Shown here in pieces: positions 1,687 to 8,519 of a DNA stretch of 64,000 nt. The notes below the pieces were generated by a model. That model was not told where the DNA came from and searched no databases. It was given only the letters and a program-made list of their open reading frames with translations. The translations under genes and the position numbers were made by a program. The stretch lies in contig CBDCPE010000003.1 in assembly GCA_965220055.1 (NCBI GenBank), positions 19,374 to 83,373 of the forward strand. The letters run 5' to 3'. Within the stretch, counting starts at the first letter, position 1. Each line of letters starts with the position of its first letter. Source of the stretch: Dehalococcoidia bacterium (GTDB lineage Bacteria; Chloroflexota; Dehalococcoidia; Lucifugimonadales; UBA3495).

Positions 1687-2274
1687 TCAGGCCGGGCGGT
1701 GGAACTCCTCCACCTGTTGCAGGTAGTTGCGCAGCAGGTCGTGTCCCACCGTGGTCATGATCGACTCGGGGTGGAACTGCACGCCTTCCACGGGCAACTC
1801 CTTGTGGCGCACGCCCATGATGAGGCCGTTGTCCGTCCAGGCGGTGACTTCCAGGAAGTCTGGAAGCGTTTCGGGGTAGATGACCAGGCTGTGGTAGCGG
1901 ATGCCCTCGAAGGGGTTGGGCAGCCCGGCGAAGACCCCTTTGCCATCATGGTGGATCAACGACGTTTTGCCGTGGCGGATCTCACCGGCCCGATCCACCG
2001 TCGCGCCGTAGGCGTCGCCGATGCACTGGTGGCCGAGGCAAACGCCGAGCACCGGCAGCTTTGGGCCGAAGTGCCGGATGACGTCGTTGGAGATGCCGGC
2101 CTCCCGTGGGGTGCAGGGGCCCGGGGACACGACGATGCCCTCGGGCTGCATGGCTTCGATGTCCTCTATGGTGGTCTTGTCGTTGCGGATCACCTCAACC
2201 TCGGCGCCCAGCTCGCAGAGGTACTGGTAGAGGTTGTAGGTGAAGCTGTCGTAGTTGTCGATTAGCAGTAGCAT
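1687..2274 (-). CDS. trpG: Anthranilate synthase component II (glutamine amidotransferase)
   Basis: MLLLIDNYDSFTYNLYQYL..SPGPCTP..LGVCLGHQ..FHPES class-I GATase motifs. Same strand as trpE and downstream of the Trp T-box. Confidence 0.85.
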   Translation of the reverse strand: MLLLIDNYDSFTYNLYQYLCELGAEVEVIRNDKTTIEDIEAMQPEGIVVSPGPCTPREAGISNDVIRHFGPKLPVLGVCLGHQCIGDAYGATVDRAGEIRHGKTSLIHHDGKGVFAGLPNPFEGIRYHSLVIYPETLPDFLEVTAWTDNGLIMGVRHKELPVEGVQFHPESIMTTVGHDLLRNYLQQVEEFHRPA

Positions 2275-2714
2275 CAGTACAGTTCCACCAGTTCCAGCCA
2301 GTTGCCGTCGGGGTCCTGGCAGTAGGAGGCCTTGCGCACCAGGTTGCCACCGTCGTCGTACATCGGCACCGGCGGCGTGGGATAACTGAGGCCACGGTTA
2401 CGGGTGTTCTCGTAGAAGGCGTCGATGTCCTCGACGTGGAAGGCCAGGTGGGCGGCGCGCACGTCGTTCTTGTCGAAGTCGGCGTAGCTACCTTCGGGGT
2501 TGATGTACTGGATCAGCTCCAGCTGGTGACCGTCGCCCATGTCGAAGAACGCGCCCTTGATGTGGGTGTCGGGGAACCCGAGCAGCGTAGTCGGGAACTC
2601 GCCGGTGCGCTCGGTGCGCATGGTCAGCGTGAGGCCCAGCACGTCGGAGTAGAAGGCGACCGCAGCCTCCAGGTCCTTGACGATGAAGCCGGTGTGGAAG
2701 AATGACTTGAGCAT
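2274..2714 (-). CDS. VOC (glyoxalase/bleomycin-resistance/dioxygenase) family protein
   Basis: The internal start MLKSFFHTGFIVKDLEAAVAFY.. has a GGAGG RBS 7 nt upstream. The stop overlaps the trpG ATG (ATGA). The longer 187-aa form is unlikely. Confidence 0.75.
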   Translation of the reverse strand: MLKSFFHTGFIVKDLEAAVAFYSDVLGLTLTMRTERTGEFPTTLLGFPDTHIKGAFFDMGDGHQLELIQYINPEGSYADFDKNDVRAAHLAFHVEDIDAFYENTRNRGLSYPTPPVPMYDDGGNLVRKASYCQDPDGNWLELVELY

Positions 2715-2829
2715 TTTGGCCTCCGGATTGTTTTTGGATGGCTGTACAGGAAACTGGTCCAAGATGCCGTAAGGCACTTCATCATTCTGGGCAGCAGCGT
2801 AGCCCATGTCGCACCGGGCTAGAACCCCG

Positions 2830-3459
2830 CTACTCATCCAAAAGAGTTACCTCATAAGAGCCAGGTCCCTTGATGTATTGACGTACCATGTCCAGAGGCA
2901 CATTGTATTCATGAGCCTTCGTAACGGATACCGGTATCGATATTTCGACTTCGGTGAACGACTTGGCCCAATGGGAAATATCCGGAGGGCAGATGCCAAG
3001 AAGGTGTTTTCCTTCAACCATTGACCTGTTAACCTTTTCCTTAAAGATTTGCTCAGTTGGGTCCATTAATCCCATCTCAACGTAAACCTGCTTGAGATCG
3101 TGCTGGGTCATGACCAAGCGTTCCTCGGAGTCAACAGAATCTGCGGTAACCAATTCACGGGGATGAACCCGGTACAGGCCCTCAACAAACAGAAAATCGG
3201 CAAGGTCCCTCCCTTCACGCCAGCTACCCCTCGGTGAACTCGGTTTGACGTAAACCACAAAGTCAACCTTGGCGGCGTAGCTATAGACCATAGGTCCAAC
3301 AATGACATCACCAGGCTTGGCAGGGTCTTCTTTCCAAAATTCTAATTGTCCCACCACATCGGTCGGTCTAATCCGGTGTCTATGCAAATGTTCCCAAACC
3401 CCGGCCGACCTCATTACCGCCCCCCTAAATTCAGCCGATCCGGTCAGGAAAATATCCAT
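2830..3459 (-). CDS. Hypothetical protein (209 aa), lower-GC insert inside the trpE..trpG transcription unit
   Basis: Clean ORF with no competing frames. Composition is visibly more AT-rich than its neighbours. I recognise no motif. Confidence 0.6.
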   Translation of the reverse strand: MDIFLTGSAEFRGAVMRSAGVWEHLHRHRIRPTDVVGQLEFWKEDPAKPGDVIVGPMVYSYAAKVDFVVYVKPSSPRGSWREGRDLADFLFVEGLYRVHPRELVTADSVDSEERLVMTQHDLKQVYVEMGLMDPTEQIFKEKVNRSMVEGKHLLGICPPDISHWAKSFTEVEISIPVSVTKAHEYNVPLDMVRQYIKGPGSYEVTLLDE

Positions 3460-3771
3460 AAGCTAACCCCCGATGAACAAAGCAGTACCGAGAACCACTC
3501 GCACATCATACCGCACAGTCGTTATCGCGTACATGAGACTCCGAGCTGGCAACAGGGCAGTCGAATATTACGCAATCGGTATCACTACTACTTCGGTTTA
3601 TAACTGGTGCACATGAAGTATGGTAAATCGGACGGTAAATGCCCGCAGCCAGCCATGTCGCTGGCATAAATCGAAGTCCGTAAAGGCTAATTGGCAACCA
3701 TCTGGGACACAGACATGCGGTTCCAGAATGTTAGCCGCCTGCCAGGTCAAGTAAAATACGATTGCCTGTTG

Positions 3772-5232
3772 TCAGGCGGCGCCCTCAGCCATGTCAATGG
3801 CGCGCATCATCGCACCGGACTTGTGGAGGGTCTCCATGTATTCGTCCTCGGCCACGCTGTCGGCGACCACGCCGCCGCCGGCCTGGACGTACATGATGCC
3901 ATCCTGGAAGACCCCGGTGCGGAGGACGAGGGCGGTGTCCATGTTGCCGTTGTAGCTGAAGTAGGCGACGGCGCCCCCGTAGGGACCGCGACGTTCCTGC
4001 TCCACCTCGGCGATGATCTCCATGGCGCGTATCTTGGGCGCGCCCGACACGGTGCCGGCGGGGAAGCAGGCTCGCAGGGCGTCGTAAGGCGTCATGTCGG
4101 GCCGCAGCTGGCCTTCGACGTGGGAAACGAGGTGCATGACGTGGGAGAAGCGTTCGACGTCCATGTACTGGGTCACTTTGACGGTGCCGGGCACGCTGAC
4201 GCGGCCGATGTCGTTGCGGCCCAGGTCCAGCAGCATGATGTGCTCGGCCCGCTGTTTCTCGCTTCCCTTCAGTTCCTCCTCCAGGGAGGCGTCCTCGGCA
4301 GGCGTCTGGCCGCGCGGGCGGGTGCCGGCGATGGGGTGGGTAGCGACGGAGCCGTCGTGAACTGTGGCCACGGTCTCGATGGCGGCTCCCACTATCTGGA
4401 AACCGTTGAGGTCGAGGTAATACATATAGGGCGACGGGTTGCTGCCACGCAGGGCGCGGTACACCTGGAACGGGTGGGCGTCGGTCCTCCGGCTGAACCG
4501 TTGGGAGTTGACCACCTGGATGACGTCGCCGGCGTAGATGTACTCGATGCACTTTTCGATCACCGCCTCGTACTCCGGCACGGTGAAATTCGACTGGGTC
4601 TCGCCGCCGACCGGGAGTGAAGGCGTTGCCAGCAGCTCGGGCGGCAGTTCCAGCGGACGGGAGAGGCGGTCCACCATGCGCTCGATCTTGGCGGTGGCCG
4701 CATCGTACGCTTCAGCGATGTCTCCGCCGTCCAGCCGGGCATGGCTGACGACCTTGATGTCGTGGCGGAGATGGTCGAACACCAGCAGGGTGTCGGTGAA
4801 CATAAAGACCGATTCGGGCAGGCCCTGGGGGTCGACTTCGAGCATGGGCACGCGGGGCTCGAAGTAGTGCACCGCGTCGTAAGCGACGTAGCCCACGCCG
4901 CCGCCGTGGAAGGGAGGTAGACCTTCGACCGAGATCAGTCGGAAGGAGTCCATCTCGTTTTGCACGAGGGTGAGCGGGTCGACCGCGCCCGAGGGCTGGT
5001 CGGCGCCGGTGCTGAAAACGTCATACGGCTCGGTGCCGATGAAGCTGTATCGGCCGATGCGCTCGCCGCCGGCCACGGATTCCAGCAGGAACGAGTAGGG
5101 CGGTCGGGCGACCTTCAGGTAGGCCGACACGGGGGTTTCCAGGTCGGCGTTAATGGTGCGGTAGACCGGGCACAGGTTACCCTGGCCGGCCAGCGTGCGG
5201 ACTTGGTCCAAAGTTGGGTAGTACATTGTCAC
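3772..5232 (-). CDS. trpE: Anthranilate synthase component I
   Basis: 486 aa with the chorismate-binding enzyme pattern (LLESVAGGERIGRYSFIG .. GAPKIRAMEII..E...RGPYGGAVGYF). Preceded by a UGG-specifier T-box. Confidence 0.9.
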   Translation of the reverse strand: MTMYYPTLDQVRTLAGQGNLCPVYRTINADLETPVSAYLKVARPPYSFLLESVAGGERIGRYSFIGTEPYDVFSTGADQPSGAVDPLTLVQNEMDSFRLISVEGLPPFHGGGVGYVAYDAVHYFEPRVPMLEVDPQGLPESVFMFTDTLLVFDHLRHDIKVVSHARLDGGDIAEAYDAATAKIERMVDRLSRPLELPPELLATPSLPVGGETQSNFTVPEYEAVIEKCIEYIYAGDVIQVVNSQRFSRRTDAHPFQVYRALRGSNPSPYMYYLDLNGFQIVGAAIETVATVHDGSVATHPIAGTRPRGQTPAEDASLEEELKGSEKQRAEHIMLLDLGRNDIGRVSVPGTVKVTQYMDVERFSHVMHLVSHVEGQLRPDMTPYDALRACFPAGTVSGAPKIRAMEIIAEVEQERRGPYGGAVAYFSYNGNMDTALVLRTGVFQDGIMYVQAGGGVVADSVAEDEYMETLHKSGAMMRAIDMAEGAA

Positions 5233-5267
5233 GATATATCATCCATTGGGTTCAGCGAACACGGTCA

Positions 5268-5526
5268 TAGAAAAAGCCCGTCCCCTGCGGGACGAGCCTT
5301 ATGGCCGCGATGCCACCCTGCATACGGTGTTCTAGGGGCAGTTAACGTTGCCCATGCGGCCCGTCCTACTTGGCCCCGCATCAAGCGCGGAGTGACTTCC
5401 TTTCGGCGGGAGGCTCCGGGGTCCATTCAACGTCTGCGCCTGGCGCCGGTTCGCAGCTAACCCGGCTCTCTGTGCCTCGCTGGACGCGTACTAGTCCCGT
5501 TCACAGCATTTGGGTATTCGGATGTG
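5268..5526 (-). promoter_or_regulatory. T-box riboswitch leader, Trp (UGG) specifier, controlling trpE
   Basis: Minus-strand elements: AGUA and AGAGA stem I elements, specifier loop GAA-UGG-A, F-box-like CGUUA, T-box GGGUGGCAUCGCGG, then a terminator hairpin. Confidence 0.75.
5271..5298 (-). terminator. Intrinsic terminator of the Trp T-box leader
   Basis: Minus strand reads GGCUCGUCCCGCAGGGGACGGGCUUUUU: a GC hairpin plus U5, directly after the T-box sequence and about 35 nt before the trpE ATG. Confidence 0.7.
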
Positions 5527-5533
5527 CGCGTTA

Positions 5534-5562
5534 ATTGTATGGCGGGCGGTTAGGGGCGTCAA
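5534..5562 (-). promoter_or_regulatory. Sigma70-type promoter of the T-box leader
   Basis: Minus strand reads TTGACG, a 17-nt spacer, then TACAAT, about 7 nt before the start of the conserved leader. Confidence 0.55.
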
Positions 5563-5669
5563 CGACCCGAAGTCGCAAGATGGACAAGGTCGACTACTGG
5601 AAGCATAATCTCGGTGTACCAGCAAACGCTGTGGAAAGCAGCGTACTTCTTGAGCAATGAAGGCATTCC

Positions 5670-6047
5670 GTGACCCAACTGCTATCCTACCGGGCCATTT
5701 TCGCCGACGCTCGTGAAGTGCATGCGCAAGCCATCGAGCGGCTGTCGCACGGCGACGTGCGTGATGCGGCGGAGAAAGCCTGGTGCGCAACCAAACGCGC
5801 CACCGACGCACTGATCCTGGCCCGCACGGGAGAAGAGCCGGCAACCACCGCGCTTACGTCAAATGGTCTCGATGACTTGGCCAGAATGGACCCAGCGGCT
5901 AAGTCGCTCGTCGGTCGCTATTACAGTCGGATCAGCCAACTGCACGGTGCGTGCTTCTACAACGGTATCTGCAACTCCGAAACGGAACGGCGCATCCGTG
6001 AAACTGCCGATTACATCGACGACGCCGAACGATTGGCCGGCACCTAA
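5670..6047 (+). CDS. Small helical HEPN-superfamily-like (PaREP1-type) protein
   Basis: 125 aa with a GTG start. AAEKAWCATKRATDALI ... LHGACFYNG matches the PaREP1/HEPN-like pattern as I remember it. A divergent paralog lies at 37302-37796. Confidence 0.55.
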   Translation: MTQLLSYRAIFADAREVHAQAIERLSHGDVRDAAEKAWCATKRATDALILARTGEEPATTALTSNGLDDLARMDPAAKSLVGRYYSRISQLHGACFYNGICNSETERRIRETADYIDDAERLAGT

Positions 6048-6050
6048 GCG

Positions 6051-6306
6051 GGTAACGTGGCCCATGCGGCCCGGCCTACCTGGCCTCGCGTCCACAGTGT
6101 GGTAGCGGCCTTTCGGCGGGCGGCTCCGGGGTCCATTCGGCGCCTCTGCGCCTGGAGGCGCCGCTGTTCGCAGCTAAGCCGAGCCCGGCTCTCTGTCCCG
6201 TTGCGTGCGAAACACACTACCGGCCGCTCCTCGTGTGCCCTTCGGGCGCGGCGCTGCACGCTGGACGCGTACTAGTCCCGTTCACAGCATTTGGGTATTC
6301 GGATGT
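6051..6306 (-). promoter_or_regulatory. Truncated second copy of the Trp T-box leader (stem I, UGG specifier, F-box; no antiterminator or terminator)
   Basis: Direct repeat of 5341-5526. The first ~50 nt of the leader are identical, GAA-UGG-A is retained, and stem I carries about 60 extra nt. Similarity ends 3 nt from the stop of the convergent ORF 5670-6047. Confidence 0.6.
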
Positions 6307-6315
6307 GTGGCATCA

Positions 6316-6344
6316 ATTGTATGGCGGGTGGATGGAAGCGTCAA
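6316..6344 (-). promoter_or_regulatory. Duplicate sigma70-type promoter
   Basis: Minus strand reads TTGACG, a 17-nt spacer, then TACAAT, the same hexamers and spacing as at 5534-5562. Confidence 0.5.
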
Positions 6345-6382
6345 CGATTAGGCGACCAGTTAAGATGCCTCGGCAATGGGCG

Positions 6383-7078
6383 CTATTTGATGCCCGCTAT
6401 CAACTCGCCCAAGACGTTCAGAAATTCGGGGGAATAGTCCTCATCAACATGATTGTTGTTCCATAAACCGGAACGGAACACACGCTCTCTGCCCGAATTT
6501 ACTCCCAACCATCGTGAGGTCGGAGGATCAATTGGCTCGTGAGCATAACCACTCAGCAAGGCGATGGCATTACGTTCCACACACGCCCGCTTGCTGTCGG
6601 GACCTGGATCGTCTGGTACTGAAAGAACCAGGAACGGCATTGCACCAATGTAGCGACTAACTTCGACCTCGGCAGGACGCTCTGTTTGGCGAACGTCACG
6701 TGGAGCGCTGGAGCCCTTTCCCCAACTGTCTACTGGTTCGACCGAGCCGGCCCGCATCATCGCCTCCCCTACCAGGAGGCGGAAAATCGACCCTCGGTGA
6801 TTGCCACCAGGCGGCCGCACCGTCCCCCGATGTTGTGCCAAGCGGTTCCACAGTTTCGTGCGCGATCTGGTAGTCAGCGCGTGGGTTCCTATGCGGACAA
6901 CCCTGGGCCCGTCGCCGCTGCGAAAACGATCCTCGCCGTTCTCGAAGAAGAAATAGACACCGCGCAATGGCCAATTCATTCGACCACTAGATTCTGCGAG
7001 CGTGCTTTTGCCGCCAATGCTGCGCTCCAGCTCATCCAGATGACCATAGAACCTGACGACATCGTCAACCCGGTTCAT
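6383..7078 (-). CDS. GIY-YIG-like nuclease family protein (uncharacterised subfamily)
   Basis: 231 aa. GVYFFFE ... RVVRIGTH ... LWNRLAQHRG ... GNHRGSIFR ... VERNAIALLS resembles the GIY / YIG / Arg / Glu-Asn core order. Confidence 0.6.
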   Translation of the reverse strand: MNRVDDVVRFYGHLDELERSIGGKSTLAESSGRMNWPLRGVYFFFENGEDRFRSGDGPRVVRIGTHALTTRSRTKLWNRLAQHRGTVRPPGGNHRGSIFRLLVGEAMMRAGSVEPVDSWGKGSSAPRDVRQTERPAEVEVSRYIGAMPFLVLSVPDDPGPDSKRACVERNAIALLSGYAHEPIDPPTSRWLGVNSGRERVFRSGLWNNNHVDEDYSPEFLNVLGELIAGIK

Positions 7079-7088
7079 TTTCCGACAG

Positions 7089-7520
7089 TCATTTCAATTG
7101 CTTGCCGATTGGCAGGCCCTGCATCGGCACGCTGACCTTGGCGAATCTGCGTCGCAACCACGGTTCGAGATATTCGCGATACCGGGTGCCCGCCAAGATA
7201 ACTATTTCATTGGTCTCCGGCAACATCAAGCCCATCTGTTTCGTGACGCGGTCAGCCCACAGCCGTCTGTCGGCGACACCCATGTTGTTCAAGGTCTTTT
7301 CGTACGGGGCAAGAACTTGATTTGGTCTAACCAAACCATGCTCAGCTGACAAGATGAACCAAGGCGAGCCTGACTTCAGCACAAAGTCACGGGCTTTGTT
7401 GAACCAAGCTGATGTGTACAGTTCCTGAGCCGGACACGGGTATGGGTATTTCTGCGAAACGCAGGAAACCAGGTAGGTTGATTTTGCTGGCATGACTTCC
7501 TGGTCCAGACCGGTGTCCAA
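7089..7520 (-). CDS. DUF6884-like protein
   Basis: 143 aa. YLVSCVSQK..ELYTSAWFNKAR..WFILSAEHGLV.P..PYEKTL..RR.WA..ILAG..Y...L matches my memory of the DUF6884 pattern. Lies 10 nt upstream of the GIY-YIG-like gene. Confidence 0.55.
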   Translation of the reverse strand: MDTGLDQEVMPAKSTYLVSCVSQKYPYPCPAQELYTSAWFNKARDFVLKSGSPWFILSAEHGLVRPNQVLAPYEKTLNNMGVADRRLWADRVTKQMGLMLPETNEIVILAGTRYREYLEPWLRRRFAKVSVPMQGLPIGKQLK

Positions 7521-7550
7521 TTAATTGGCGATAAGGGTTTTCTCCGCGGG

Positions 7551-8519
7551 TTACGGCGTCAGTAGTATCTTGCCGGTGGTCTCCCTGCCCTCCAGGCGGC
7601 GGTGGGCCTCGGCGGCTTCGGCCAGGGGGAGGTTGAGGGTGACTTTGAGCCTGATTTCTCCGGACTGGACCCAGGACAAACACTCCTCGGCGCGTTGCAC
7701 CAATTCGTCACGGGTGGCAGTGTAGTCGCCCAGGCTGGGACGGGTGAGGAACAGAGAACCGTTGCGCAGCATGCCGGAGTCCACCGGACCCACGGGCCCG
7801 CCAGCCTGGCCGTAGAGCGCCATGCAGCCGCGCCGTCCCAGGACGCGCAGGCCTTTCTCGAAGGTGGTGGCGCCTACTGCGTCGTAAATGATCTTGACGC
7901 CCTCGCCGTCGGTCATCCGGCGTACTTCTTCCTCGAAATCCTGCCGGGTGTACAGGATGACGTCGTCGGCGCCGGCGTTGCTGGCGAGCGCGGCCTTGTC
8001 GTCAGTGGAAACGGTGGTGTACACGTGGAGGCCCATGCGCTTCAGCATCTGGATGAGGAGAAGGCCCATGCCGCCGGCGCCGGCGTGGACCAGGGCGCGC
8101 TGGCCGGCCTGCAACGGCACGATGTCGTTGACCAGGAAGTGGGCGGTCATGCCCTGGAGGAGGGTGGCCGCACCGGTATCAAAGTCCATCTCGTCGGGTA
8201 TGCGGACCAGCAGCCATGCGGGGACGGCCTGCTGCTCGGCATAGGAGCCGGTGTGCATGGCGTAGGCGACCCGGTCGCCGACGCTGACCTCGGTAACGCC
8301 CTCGCTCACGGCAATCACCTCGCCGGAAGCCTCACGGCCGGGTGTCCAGGGGAAGGCGGCGGGCGGGTTGGTGCCCTTTCGGCTGGAAACGTCGGTGTAG
8401 TTGACGCCGATGTTGCGGATGGCCACGACCGCTTGGCCGGGACCGGCGGTTGGCTCGGGCATGTCCTCGTATTTGAGGACGTCGGGGCTGCCGGTTTCGT
8501 AGGCGCGGATGCCTTTCAT
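7551..8519 (-). CDS. NADPH:quinone oxidoreductase / zeta-crystallin-type MDR
   Basis: The start MKGIRAY has a GGAGG RBS. Shows the MDR pattern and a GAGGMG-type nucleotide-binding motif. The 17 extra N-terminal codons of the longest ORF are a translated repeat element. Confidence 0.85.
   Translation of the reverse strand: MKGIRAYETGSPDVLKYEDMPEPTAGPGQAVVAIRNIGVNYTDVSSRKGTNPPAAFPWTPGREASGEVIAVSEGVTEVSVGDRVAYAMHTGSYAEQQAVPAWLLVRIPDEMDFDTGAATLLQGMTAHFLVNDIVPLQAGQRALVHAGAGGMGLLLIQMLKRMGLHVYTTVSTDDKAALASNAGADDVILYTRQDFEEEVRRMTDGEGVKIIYDAVGATTFEKGLRVLGRRGCMALYGQAGGPVGPVDSGMLRNGSLFLTRPSLGDYTATRDELVQRAEECLSWVQSGEIRLKVTLNLPLAEAAEAHRRLEGRETTGKILLTP

Follow-up and report, generated by a model that had tools for sequence, protein, structure and literature searches.

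The truncated second copy of a tryptophan (Trp) T-box leader found upstream of the trpE operon in a few strains of Dehalococcoidia is probably the scar of a recombination event that joined two alleles of the ADH-trpE intergenic island, and the resulting duplicated leader is a strain-level curiosity and no new control system. The window analysed here is a stretch of 64,000 nt from a Dehalococcoidia bacterium (GCA_965220055.1, contig CBDCPE010000003.1, 19,374 to 83,373 forward), in which a sequence-only reading had placed a full Trp T-box and a truncated copy of its promoter, Stem I, specifier and F-box around a convergent HEPN-like gene; this anatomy was confirmed (Table 1).

The two leaders and the gene between them

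Table 1. Features of the trpE upstream region and their coordinates in the window
Feature	Position	Strand	Basis or remark
trpE (anthranilate synthase component I)	3772-5232	-	Heads the regulated operon
Proximal complete Trp T-box leader	5268-5527	-	RF00230 match, terminator, conservation
Proximal trp promoter TTGACG-17-TACAAT	5534-5562	-	Consensus scan, 10/12 matches; kept in relatives
HEPN promoter TGGACA-17-CATAAT	5581-5609	+	Consensus scan, 10/12 matches; hexamers conserved
HEPN/PaREP1-like gene, 125 aa	5670-6047	+	PF05942, Rx4H, predicted fold
Junction of distal F-box and HEPN gene	6048-6057	-	Similarity to proximal leader stops here
Distal truncated leader copy	6048-6308	-	Alignment to proximal leader
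Private 58-nt insertion in distal Stem I	6201-6258	-	Absent from L081, L082, L084-L088
Distal trp-type promoter TTGACG-17-TACAAT	6316-6344	-	Consensus scan
GIY-YIG_3 (231 aa) and DUF6884 (143 aa) gene pair	6383-7520	-	PADLOC, Pfam matches

The operon under the proximal T-box is arranged as trpE-(209-aa gene)-glyoxalase-trpG, with Pfam domains Chorismate_bind (7.7e-88) and Anth_synt_I_N (8.7e-31) identified in TrpE, which is 73-99% identical to its counterparts in 80 relatives. The proximal leader matches the whole of the Rfam T-box model (5285-5513(-), model positions 1-219, 62.5 bits, E = 7.5e-13), bearing out the T-box proposed at 5268-5526, although the score falls below the Rfam gathering score of 93; the element was detected with an E-value threshold rather than the gathering threshold, at which a scan of the whole window gave no match. 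Every motif listed beforehand was found: the Stem I motifs AGUA (kink-turn region) and AGAGA (AG bulge), which the covariance-model alignment places together with a distal loop; the specifier loop GAA-UGG-A at 5422-5428, in which UGG occupies 5423-5425; CGUUA at 5343-5347 as the F-box, with Stem II also present; the T-box sequence GGGUGGCAUCGCGG at 5305-5318, with UGGC at 5312-5315; and a terminator formed by a 12-bp hairpin followed by U5 (~5271-5300), the stem and U5 of which overlap the 3′ strand of the antiterminator. Across an alignment of 40 relatives' leaders, the UGG specifier and the T-box sequence (GGGUGGCAUCGCGG; GGGUGGCA) are invariant and six base pairs carry compensatory changes (GC/CG and UA/CG, for example, in Stem I). 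In this GC-rich RNA the minimum-free-energy folds of whole leaders had z-scores close to 0 and were not informative. Pairing of the UGGC would need G73 in tRNA-Trp, and the 64-kb window holds no tRNA genes. Judged by its motifs and their conservation, the proximal element is a genuine transcription-terminating T-box riboswitch of the ordinary kind, with a predicted specificity for tRNA-Trp.

The distal copy holds a promoter, Stem I, a UGG specifier (6133-6135), Stem II and an F-box (6053-6057), and is devoid of the T-box sequence, antiterminator and terminator that make up the expression platform. Its similarity to the proximal leader ends at 6048, adjoining the HEPN stop codon (6045-6047), where the junction reads ACGTTACCCGC and then TTA, which is that stop codon in reverse complement. 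The claim that the first ~50 transcribed nucleotides are identical held for 49 nt at 100% (5478-5526 versus 6259-6307), flanked by repeats of 82% identity over the promoters (5528-5565 versus 6310-6347) and 79% identity further into the leader (5338-5435 versus 6048-6145). Both trp-type promoters were recovered on the minus strand, as claimed, by a consensus scan that returned three sites for the region, the expectation from shuffles being 0.4. The DNA between the repeats had been described as essentially one gene; the HEPN gene is indeed there, but so is its own promoter, back-to-back with the proximal trp promoter and with both hexamers conserved in two related loci (L013 and L089). Terminator-like sites were absent from the minus strand between the copies (5566-6050). 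On its upstream side the distal promoter is adjoined by the GIY-YIG_3/DUF6884 pair, which matches the PADLOC candidate defence system PDC-M57 (PDC-M57B 7.4e-79, PDC-M57A 1.3e-36) and includes a Pfam DUF6884 match at 2.9e-48.

An extra ~60 nt in distal Stem I is present in the window as a 58-nt insert, but it is private to this sequence and absent from the near-identical long-read contig L081, to which the window is 99.8-100% identical outside 6182-6258. The insert belongs to a variant patch (~6130-6258) that also features indels of 6, 5 and 2 nt and three substitutions at otherwise invariant positions, and because of the insert the minimum-free-energy fold of the window's distal Stem I loses the Stem I topology. 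When the window and every locus were searched locally for the origin of the insert, it matched only itself, and metagenome scans for the insert (CGAAGGGCACACGAGGAGCGGCCGG) and for the junction (ACGTTACCCGCTTAGGTGCC) gave 0 matches each in a collection that evidently lacks these sponge samples. Rfam gave no match to the window's distal copy even at E ≤ 10, while the insert-free copy of L081 scored 45.9 bits against RF00230, with model positions 1 to ~150 aligning well and the 3′ part falling on the HEPN antisense strand at a posterior probability of ~0.3 and with no UGGN.

The HEPN-like open reading frame matches Pfam PaREP1 (PF05942) at 28.7 bits (cut-off 24.4) over residues 14-56 only. Its conservation as a protein was upheld by 3745 homologues, most of which carry a precomputed PF05942 assignment, and by an Rx4H motif (R87-ISQL-H92) whose R87 and H92 are invariant in 34 family sequences. 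An AlphaFold2 model (mean pLDDT 96.2, pTM 0.90) predicts five helices, and the best Foldseek matches in the PDB are the HEPN structures 2hsb, 3o10 and 2q00, at TM-scores of 0.66-0.79 and E-values of only 4e-3; when the HEPN alignment was run as a profile against PDB sequences, nothing significant came back. As modelled, the product is a stand-alone, toxin-like HEPN protein of the PaREP1-like, Rx4H type. An MNT or other antitoxin gene was sought beside the HEPN gene in the window and in L081, L089, L090 and L094, and none was found. A 26-codon open reading frame upstream of it (~5580-5660) was considered as an antitoxin and rejected, the conserved bases being those of the promoter -35 and -10 hexamers and the reading frame not being conserved in L013. 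Flanking direct repeats, as a mark of a mobile cassette, were not found around other members of the HEPN family.

Distribution of the arrangement and affinities of the copies

A single leader, ~330 nt upstream of trpE, is present in all 80 related Dehalococcoidia/SAR202 species representatives, and a second copy within 4 kb was identified in none of them; relatives with two complete T-boxes, which the sequence-only reading had named as the sign of an ordinary tandem, are likewise missing from this set. Even L001 (99% TrpE identity, 95.7% DNA identity) has one leader, and its collinearity with the window stops exactly at the proximal -35 element. The duplicated arrangement is confined to a few strains, represented by L081 and L082, which are independent long-read contigs from different samples, and by short JGI contigs (L084 and L086-L088). 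The order of distal copy, HEPN gene and proximal copy is common to the window, L081 and L082, and since the L082 strain is ~3.5% diverged the arrangement is not brand new.

The components of the arrangement occur separately in other relatives. In L089, ADH is followed by an opposite-strand HEPN gene that is 86% identical, then by both promoters (HEPN and trp), one leader and trpE, the block from HEPN to the trp promoter being collinear with the window, and L013 has an L089-like layout with two extra open reading frames and HEPN beside a single leader. The DUF6884/GIY-YIG genes lie directly upstream of a single trp promoter in L005, L011, L018 and L025-L027, and farther upstream of it in L020 and L021. 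A convergent antisense leader is absent from the HEPN-family loci of L089, L013, L090 and L094. The two copies also differ in their affinities: from Stem II to the F-box the distal copy is nearest to L013/L005 and the proximal one to L002, and the single leader of L001 is 100% identical to the distal copy in Stem I and 92% in the promoter. With 79-82% identity outside the 49-nt block and different nearest relatives, the copies are not a recent in-place duplication.

Decay of the distal copy was assessed at 85 alignment columns invariant in 39 functional leaders. The proximal copies and the L081 distal copy show 0 mismatches, the L082 distal copy one (the U of the Stem II AGUA motif), and the window's distal copy three mismatches and four indels. 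The window, L081 and L082 share the same distal promoter hexamers, and in the two contigs the distal Stem I keeps a canonical fold, the UGG specifier, AG bulge and distal loop. The distal leader thus appears to be drifting towards a pseudo-leader; the perfect L081-type copy and the hexamers intact in all three variants fit a young scar, but also selection for retention of the copy.

Two further short-read contigs are mosaic, with three different species backgrounds in L083 and two in L085. L083 combines L071-like upstream DNA (92%), the window-type cassette and L036-like downstream DNA (90%), and the upstream part of L085 is 98.5% identical to L036, which itself has a single leader; the joins lie inside conserved Stem I, where the shared stretches are ≤25 nt against the available reference leaders. 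Cassette transfer between species was not accepted as the explanation, the pattern fitting chimeric short-read assembly, and real recombination in these mosaics is possible.

Origin and possible roles of the truncated copy

Of the two readings offered beforehand, a relic of gene insertion or duplication is favoured over tryptophan-linked antisense control, given the single leaders of the 80 relatives, the HEPN gene beside a single leader in L089 and L013, and the differing nearest relatives of the two copies. The distal copy is explained most simply, and most probably, by two alleles having been joined illegitimately where the F-box meets the HEPN stop codon. Allele A would have carried ADH, HEPN on the opposite strand, the trp promoter, the leader and trpE, and allele B ADH, followed farther along by DUF6884, GIY-YIG, the trp promoter and the leader; an illegitimate crossover within this hypervariable intergenic island would have linked allele B, broken just past its F-box, to allele A at the HEPN stop codon. 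The crossover may have occurred at the microhomology ACCCGC, which is found at the junction and recurs right after the ADH stop codon (7546-7551), although this candidate is 6 nt only. For homology-facilitated illegitimate recombination there is a published account (PMC3240628). The product could have been reached in one step by fusing the alleles, through a tandem duplication and a later replacement, or by way of a circular intermediate that integrated.

Two readings would make the second copy either a more ordinary structure or no structure at all. Two complete riboswitches in series, as at trpE in bacilli, where adjacent multiple T-boxes are known (PMC2494555), would account for a promoter, Stem I and UGG specifier in both copies, but the probability of such a tandem is close to nil: the distal copy lacks all three parts of the expression platform, the 3′ part of the L081 alignment is forced onto the HEPN antisense strand at low posterior probability, an opposite-strand gene and a second promoter separate the copies, and no relative among the 80 carries two complete units. 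Only slightly more credible is a misassembly of strain variants of one leader in series, an artefact suggested by the chimeric appearance of L083 and L085, joined as they are inside conserved Stem I, and by the 58-nt patch unique to the window; against it stand the order shared by the window and two independent long-read contigs (L081, L082), the identity of only ~80% between the copies, and the intact conserved gene and unique sequence between them.

The distal promoter may be active, and antisense read-through from it is plausible. RNA polymerase starting there would read antisense through the HEPN gene and then enter the intact proximal T-box, which would still terminate when Trp is plentiful, so that tryptophan control of the operon would be preserved and the HEPN gene would merely undergo constitutive convergent transcription. 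The proposal of a tryptophan-linked antisense control of this gene is not supported, because the distal copy, having no antiterminator or terminator, cannot turn tRNA-Trp charging into a transcriptional decision and binding of tRNA-Trp cannot alter its output; the family members in L089, L013, L090 and L094 have no antisense leader, and the distal Stem I is disrupted in the window itself. A rival reading is that selection keeps the distal promoter and leader because convergent transcription, or an antisense RNA made from this trp-type promoter, holds an orphan HEPN toxin down in the manner of an RNA antitoxin; the contribution of Stem I might be to make the RNA more stable or to link it to tRNA-Trp. 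This is unlikely, though less so than the other functional alternatives. It draws on the invariant Rx4H motif and the absence of an MNT-type or other partner gene nearby, on distal promoter hexamers intact in all variants, on an L081-type copy unchanged at the 85 invariant positions, on persistence in the diverged L082 strain, and on a path without terminator-like sites from the distal leader to the proximal promoter. The family loci of L089, L013, L090 and L094, however, have neither a convergent leader nor a flanking repeat, and the HEPN family is thus not generally dependent on such an antisense RNA; furthermore, the missing expression platform removes any tryptophan dependence at the distal copy, the insert breaks Stem I in the window, and an invariant AGUA position is mutated in L082. 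Less probable again is that the truncated copy, far from being a dead scar, is a co-opted module whose constitutive trp-type promoter would provide an antisense RNA silencing the HEPN toxin, and whose highly conserved Stem I would also be a homologous landing pad for transfer of the HEPN cassette between co-resident SAR202 symbiont species. The contigs L083 and L085 would illustrate such movement of cassettes, provided that they are genuine and no chimeras. By itself, Stem I is able to bind tRNA, and the canonical distal Stem I of L081 and L082, with its UGG, AG bulge and distal loop, could in principle serve as a tRNA-Trp decoy or local capture site tuning the sensitivity of the downstream T-box; this is very improbable, as the distal module stands ~700 nt from the complete T-box, a distance that takes in an antisense gene and a second promoter, one leader suffices in all 80 related species, the window's copy is disrupted, and a search of the literature on truncated or remnant T-boxes found nothing relevant that would serve as a precedent.

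This sponge-associated Dehalococcoidia clade controls trpE by a Trp T-box that scores below the Rfam gathering threshold and is therefore missed by automated annotation. Shuffling of accessory toxin or defence genes into an adjoining upstream hot spot can duplicate part of a conserved riboswitch leader, and truncated leaders whose promoters are still live may give rise to antisense transcription and to errors in assembly. A new mechanism would be at hand only if the distal promoter were shown to control the HEPN gene.

Comparison with known systems

A T-box upstream of trpE has been published for Dehalococcoides (PMC2494555), and with the Trp T-boxes of trpE in Chloroflexi (Dehalococcoides) and Firmicutes (RF00230) the proximal element shares the AGUA/AGAGA Stem I, UGG specifier, F-box, UGGC-bearing T-box sequence, competing antiterminator and terminator helices and a site before trpE; it differs in being GC-rich, in a long Stem II insert, in its score of 62.5 against a gathering threshold of 93, and in its host, a sponge-associated SAR202-type Dehalococcoidia lineage. 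In bacilli, multiple adjacent T-boxes occur upstream of trpE (PMC2494555) and also of thrZ; leaders with the same specifier stand in series upstream of trpE here too, but the bacillar tandems consist of two or three complete units, whereas the upstream copy described here has no expression platform and has its own promoter.

The HEPN-like protein shares with the HEPN-T clade PaREP1/8 (PF05942; 2q00) its Pfam match, all-helical bundle, small size and membership of a family that is multi-copy in these genomes. It is, however, bacterial and not crenarchaeal, and its Rx4H motif is atypical for a subfamily described as lacking the R of the motif (PMC3710099). Unlike HEPN-MNT toxin-antitoxin pairs (5yep, 6m6u, 7bxo), it has no MNT or partner gene at any locus inspected, and in contrast to type I-like antisense control of toxins, the convergent antisense promoter occurs only in window-type strains. 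For the arrangement as a whole a close parallel is homology-facilitated illegitimate recombination, in which pairing of the ADH or trpE flank would provide one side and the join of F-box and HEPN stop codon the other, the event being read here from its end product alone.

A complete Trp T-box and its truncated upstream copy

The leader preceding trpE (5268-5527, minus strand), read from sequence as a full T-box, contains every motif of that description in its RF00230 alignment, with a predicted hairpin and U5 tract completing the terminator (see table), the 5' strand of the hairpin overlapping the 3' strand of the antiterminator. At the Rfam gathering threshold the window returned no match; with an E-value threshold the entire RF00230 model was matched significantly at 5285-5513 (minus strand; E = 7.5e-13), although the score of 62.5 bits falls below the gathering score of 93. 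The UGG specifier and T-box sequence are invariant in an alignment of 40 leaders, and compensatory changes affect six pairs, distributed over Stems I, II and IIA/B. The proximal element therefore joins the T-box family as a new member passed over by the Rfam threshold. Trp T-boxes of the whole clade, from the trpE loci of 80 species-level relatives, score ~60 bits, well under 93, and therefore go unreported in standard Rfam annotation of these MAGs.

Minus-strand reading of 5000-6600, pairwise alignment and a repeat finder agree on two direct copies of promoter and leader, and a promoter scan recovered both promoters together with a plus-strand site, TGGACA-17-CATAAT (5581-5609), three sites in all against 0.4 expected from shuffles. 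The sequence-only reading was borne out on the duplication itself, on the ~50 identical first transcribed nucleotides, on the ~60 nt of extra distal Stem I (58 nt, 6201-6258, accompanied by three smaller indels) and on the end of similarity at 6048, beside the stop codon (6045-6047) of the plus-strand HEPN ORF at 5670-6047; its account of the intervening DNA as essentially one gene stands for this ORF, but overlooks the plus-strand promoter.

Features of the two leader copies and of the adjacent gene pair
Feature	Proximal or only position	Distal position	Strand	Basis or identity
Promoter	5528-5565	6310-6347	-	82% identity
TTGACG-17-TACAAT	5534-5562	6316-6344	-	promoter scan
First transcribed bases	5478-5526	6259-6307	-	49 nt, 100% identity
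Stem I AGUA and AGAGA	proximal leader		-	RF00230 alignment
Stem II to F-box	5338-5435	6048-6145	-	79% identity
UGG specifier (proximal GAA-UGG-A)	5423-5425	6133-6135	-	RF00230 alignment; distal, alignment
Stem II AGUA	proximal leader		-	RF00230 alignment
F-box (proximal CGUUA)	5343-5347	6053-6057	-	RF00230 alignment; distal, alignment
T-box sequence GGGUGGCAUCGCGG	5305-5318		-	RF00230 alignment
Terminator hairpin, 12 bp then U5	~5271-5300		-	RNAfold
GIY-YIG_3 (231 aa) and DUF6884 (143 aa)	6383-7520		-	PADLOC PDC-M57: B 7.4e-79, A 1.3e-36

The distal copy comprises promoter, Stem I, UGG specifier, Stem II and F-box, everything beyond the F-box being absent, as had been noted of its antiterminator and terminator. 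It gives no Rfam match even at E <= 10; the insert-free distal copy of long-read contig L081 scores 45.9 bits against RF00230, the 3' third of the model being forced onto the antisense strand of the ORF (posterior probability ~0.3), with UGGN absent from this part of the alignment. Multiple adjacent T-boxes have been published upstream of trpE in bacilli (PMC2494555). A tandem T-box is rejected here, and the distal copy is predicted to be incapable of a tRNA-dependent termination decision, because its expression platform is absent, UGGN is missing, and scanning of the minus strand between the copies found no terminator-like site.

The HEPN gene and the variable ADH-trpE region

The HEPN ORF is conserved as a protein, matching Pfam PaREP1 above cut-off, with 3745 homologues (several per genome in MAGs of relatives) and R87-x4-H92 invariant in the 34 examined. 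An AlphaFold2 model forms a helical bundle (pLDDT 96) and, within the PDB, most closely resembles the HEPN structures 2hsb, 3o10 and 2q00 (TM-scores 0.66-0.79). PaREP1/8 has been described as a member of the HEPN-T clade without the R (PMC3710099), whereas the bacterial family here retains it. Members of the family appear to enter numerous unrelated loci as a bare gene, and no MNT-type partner was found beside it at any locus examined. In L013 and L089, two further loci carrying the gene, the ~95 nt preceding the ORF are conserved; an apparent 26-codon ORF in this stretch is no gene, since the region holds the TGGACA-17-CATAAT promoter. A weak Rfam COG2908 RNA match inside the coding sequence (5720-5760, plus strand, 15.4 bits, E ~1) is almost certainly due to chance. 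At locus L090 (3501-3878), an 82% identical paralogue splits prfA (RF-1) and prmC, normally a tight conserved pair, on the same strand and with no repeats flanking it.

The TrpE-anchored comparison set consists entirely of Dehalococcoidia, Chloroflexota or SAR202 MAGs, with marine sponges indicated as their source by the few record titles naming one and by a HEPN-like homologue deposited under the sponge Geodia barretti. Gene order across the clade runs PrpD, ADH, a variable 0-2 kb, one leader, trpE, a variable stretch, glyoxalase and trpG, with a single homologous leader ~330 nt upstream of trpE in nearly all 80 loci. In L089, the order is ADH, HEPN (opposite strand, 86% identical, 6 nt between the HEPN and ADH stop codons), HEPN and trp promoters, one leader and trpE, the HEPN-to-trp-promoter block being collinear with the window and sharing the distinctive CAATTAAC that follows the -10 element; L013 repeats this layout with two inserted ORFs. 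Synteny thus supplies HEPN alleles free of the duplication, and the presence of the HEPN gene at the trpE locus predates it. In L001, IS-type transposases and an ATPase fragment replace the GIY-YIG_3/DUF6884 pair, a match to the PADLOC candidate defence system PDC-M57. Several relatives (L005, L011, L018, L025-L027) have this pair immediately before their single trp promoter, and the ADH-trpE region thus behaves as a small hot spot for defence genes and mobile elements.

Within the operon, a glyoxalase/VOC-family gene (2274-2837, minus strand) lies between trpE and trpG, a position it occupies in almost all of the 80 relatives (54-97% identity); its conservation within a trp operon under T-box control is unusual. 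The stretch 2700-3770 (minus strand) is of lower GC (~50% vs ~64%) and carries a 209-aa ORF (2830-3459, minus strand), 310 nt from trpE and without Pfam, NCBIfam or PADLOC match; inserted between trpE and the glyoxalase gene, it is present in L001 and L081 and absent from the long-read contig L082 and most relatives.

Origin and spread of the duplication

The window reads DUF6884, GIY-YIG, promoter, 5' part of a leader, HEPN gene, promoter, full leader, trpE, placing both arrangements of the relatives in series. The distal Stem I (100% identical) and promoter (92%) match the single leader of L001, a near-conspecific representative (95.7% DNA identity) that stays collinear with the window precisely as far as the proximal -35 element; from Stem II to the F-box, the nearest relatives are L013/L005 for the distal copy (82%) and L002 for the proximal (86-88%). 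The copies are therefore not sister sequences. Most economically, two alleles of the hot spot may have fused, an illegitimate join bringing the HEPN stop codon of one next to a point just past the F-box of the other and leaving the truncated copy as a probable recombination scar. Products of this sort are described for homology-facilitated illegitimate recombination (PMC3240628). The junction reads ACGTTACCCGC then TTAGG; ACCCGC recurs after the ADH stop codon (7546-7551), which is compatible with a microhomology-mediated event and no proof of one. Such a fusion agrees with the earlier suggestion of a relic of gene insertion or duplication, fitting relatives with either HEPN or DUF6884/GIY-YIG before a single leader.

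The duplicated arrangement recurs in L081 (99.8-100% identical to the window except 6182-6258), L082 (~96.6%) and JGI short contigs L084 and L086-L088, yet in 0/80 species representatives, and is hence a strain-level structural polymorphism. Two further JGI short-read contigs, L083 and L085, join an identical copy of the HEPN cassette to ADH/PrpD and trpE DNA of other species (L083 1-4676; L085 1-3100): upstream, L085 is 98.5% identical to the single-leader locus L036, and L083 combines L071-like upstream with L036-like downstream DNA. The joins fall within short shared Stem I stretches (25 nt between L036 and the window type, at most ~18-25 nt for the L071 type), and chimeric assembly through the conserved riboswitch is more likely than real recombination, a caution that such leaders can mis-join metagenome contigs of co-resident species.

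At 85 columns invariant in 39 functional single leaders, both proximal copies and the L081 distal copy have no mismatch, the L082 distal copy has one (U of the Stem II AGUA motif), and that of the window has three plus four indels; by minimum-free-energy prediction, only the last loses the canonical Stem I fold. This pattern suggests relaxed constraint, three variants being too few for proof. A distal patch private to the window (6130-6258, minus strand) comprises the 58-nt insert, indels of 6, 5 and 2 nt and 3 substitutions, and could reflect recent conversion from some donor or consensus error; no source of the insert was found in the window, any locus or the metagenome collection.

Antisense transcription and known systems

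The distal copy retains an intact consensus promoter, and the HEPN gene beside it has its own; firing of the former would send transcription antisense through the HEPN gene before subjecting it to the intact T-box, so that the operon would remain under control, with the HEPN gene exposed to constitutive convergent transcription. The tryptophan-linked antisense control raised by the sequence-only reading is unsupported, because the distal copy lacks an expression platform, the other HEPN-family loci examined carry no such leader or flanking repeat, and the copy in the window is itself damaged. That selection maintains the distal promoter and leader for an antisense role is improbable. Our literature search yielded nothing relevant on truncated riboswitch copies left behind by gene shuffling. 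A T-box before trpE has been published in Dehalococcoides (PMC2494555), trpE is already known to be under T-box control in Chloroflexi, and the truncated copy does not constitute a novel type of system.
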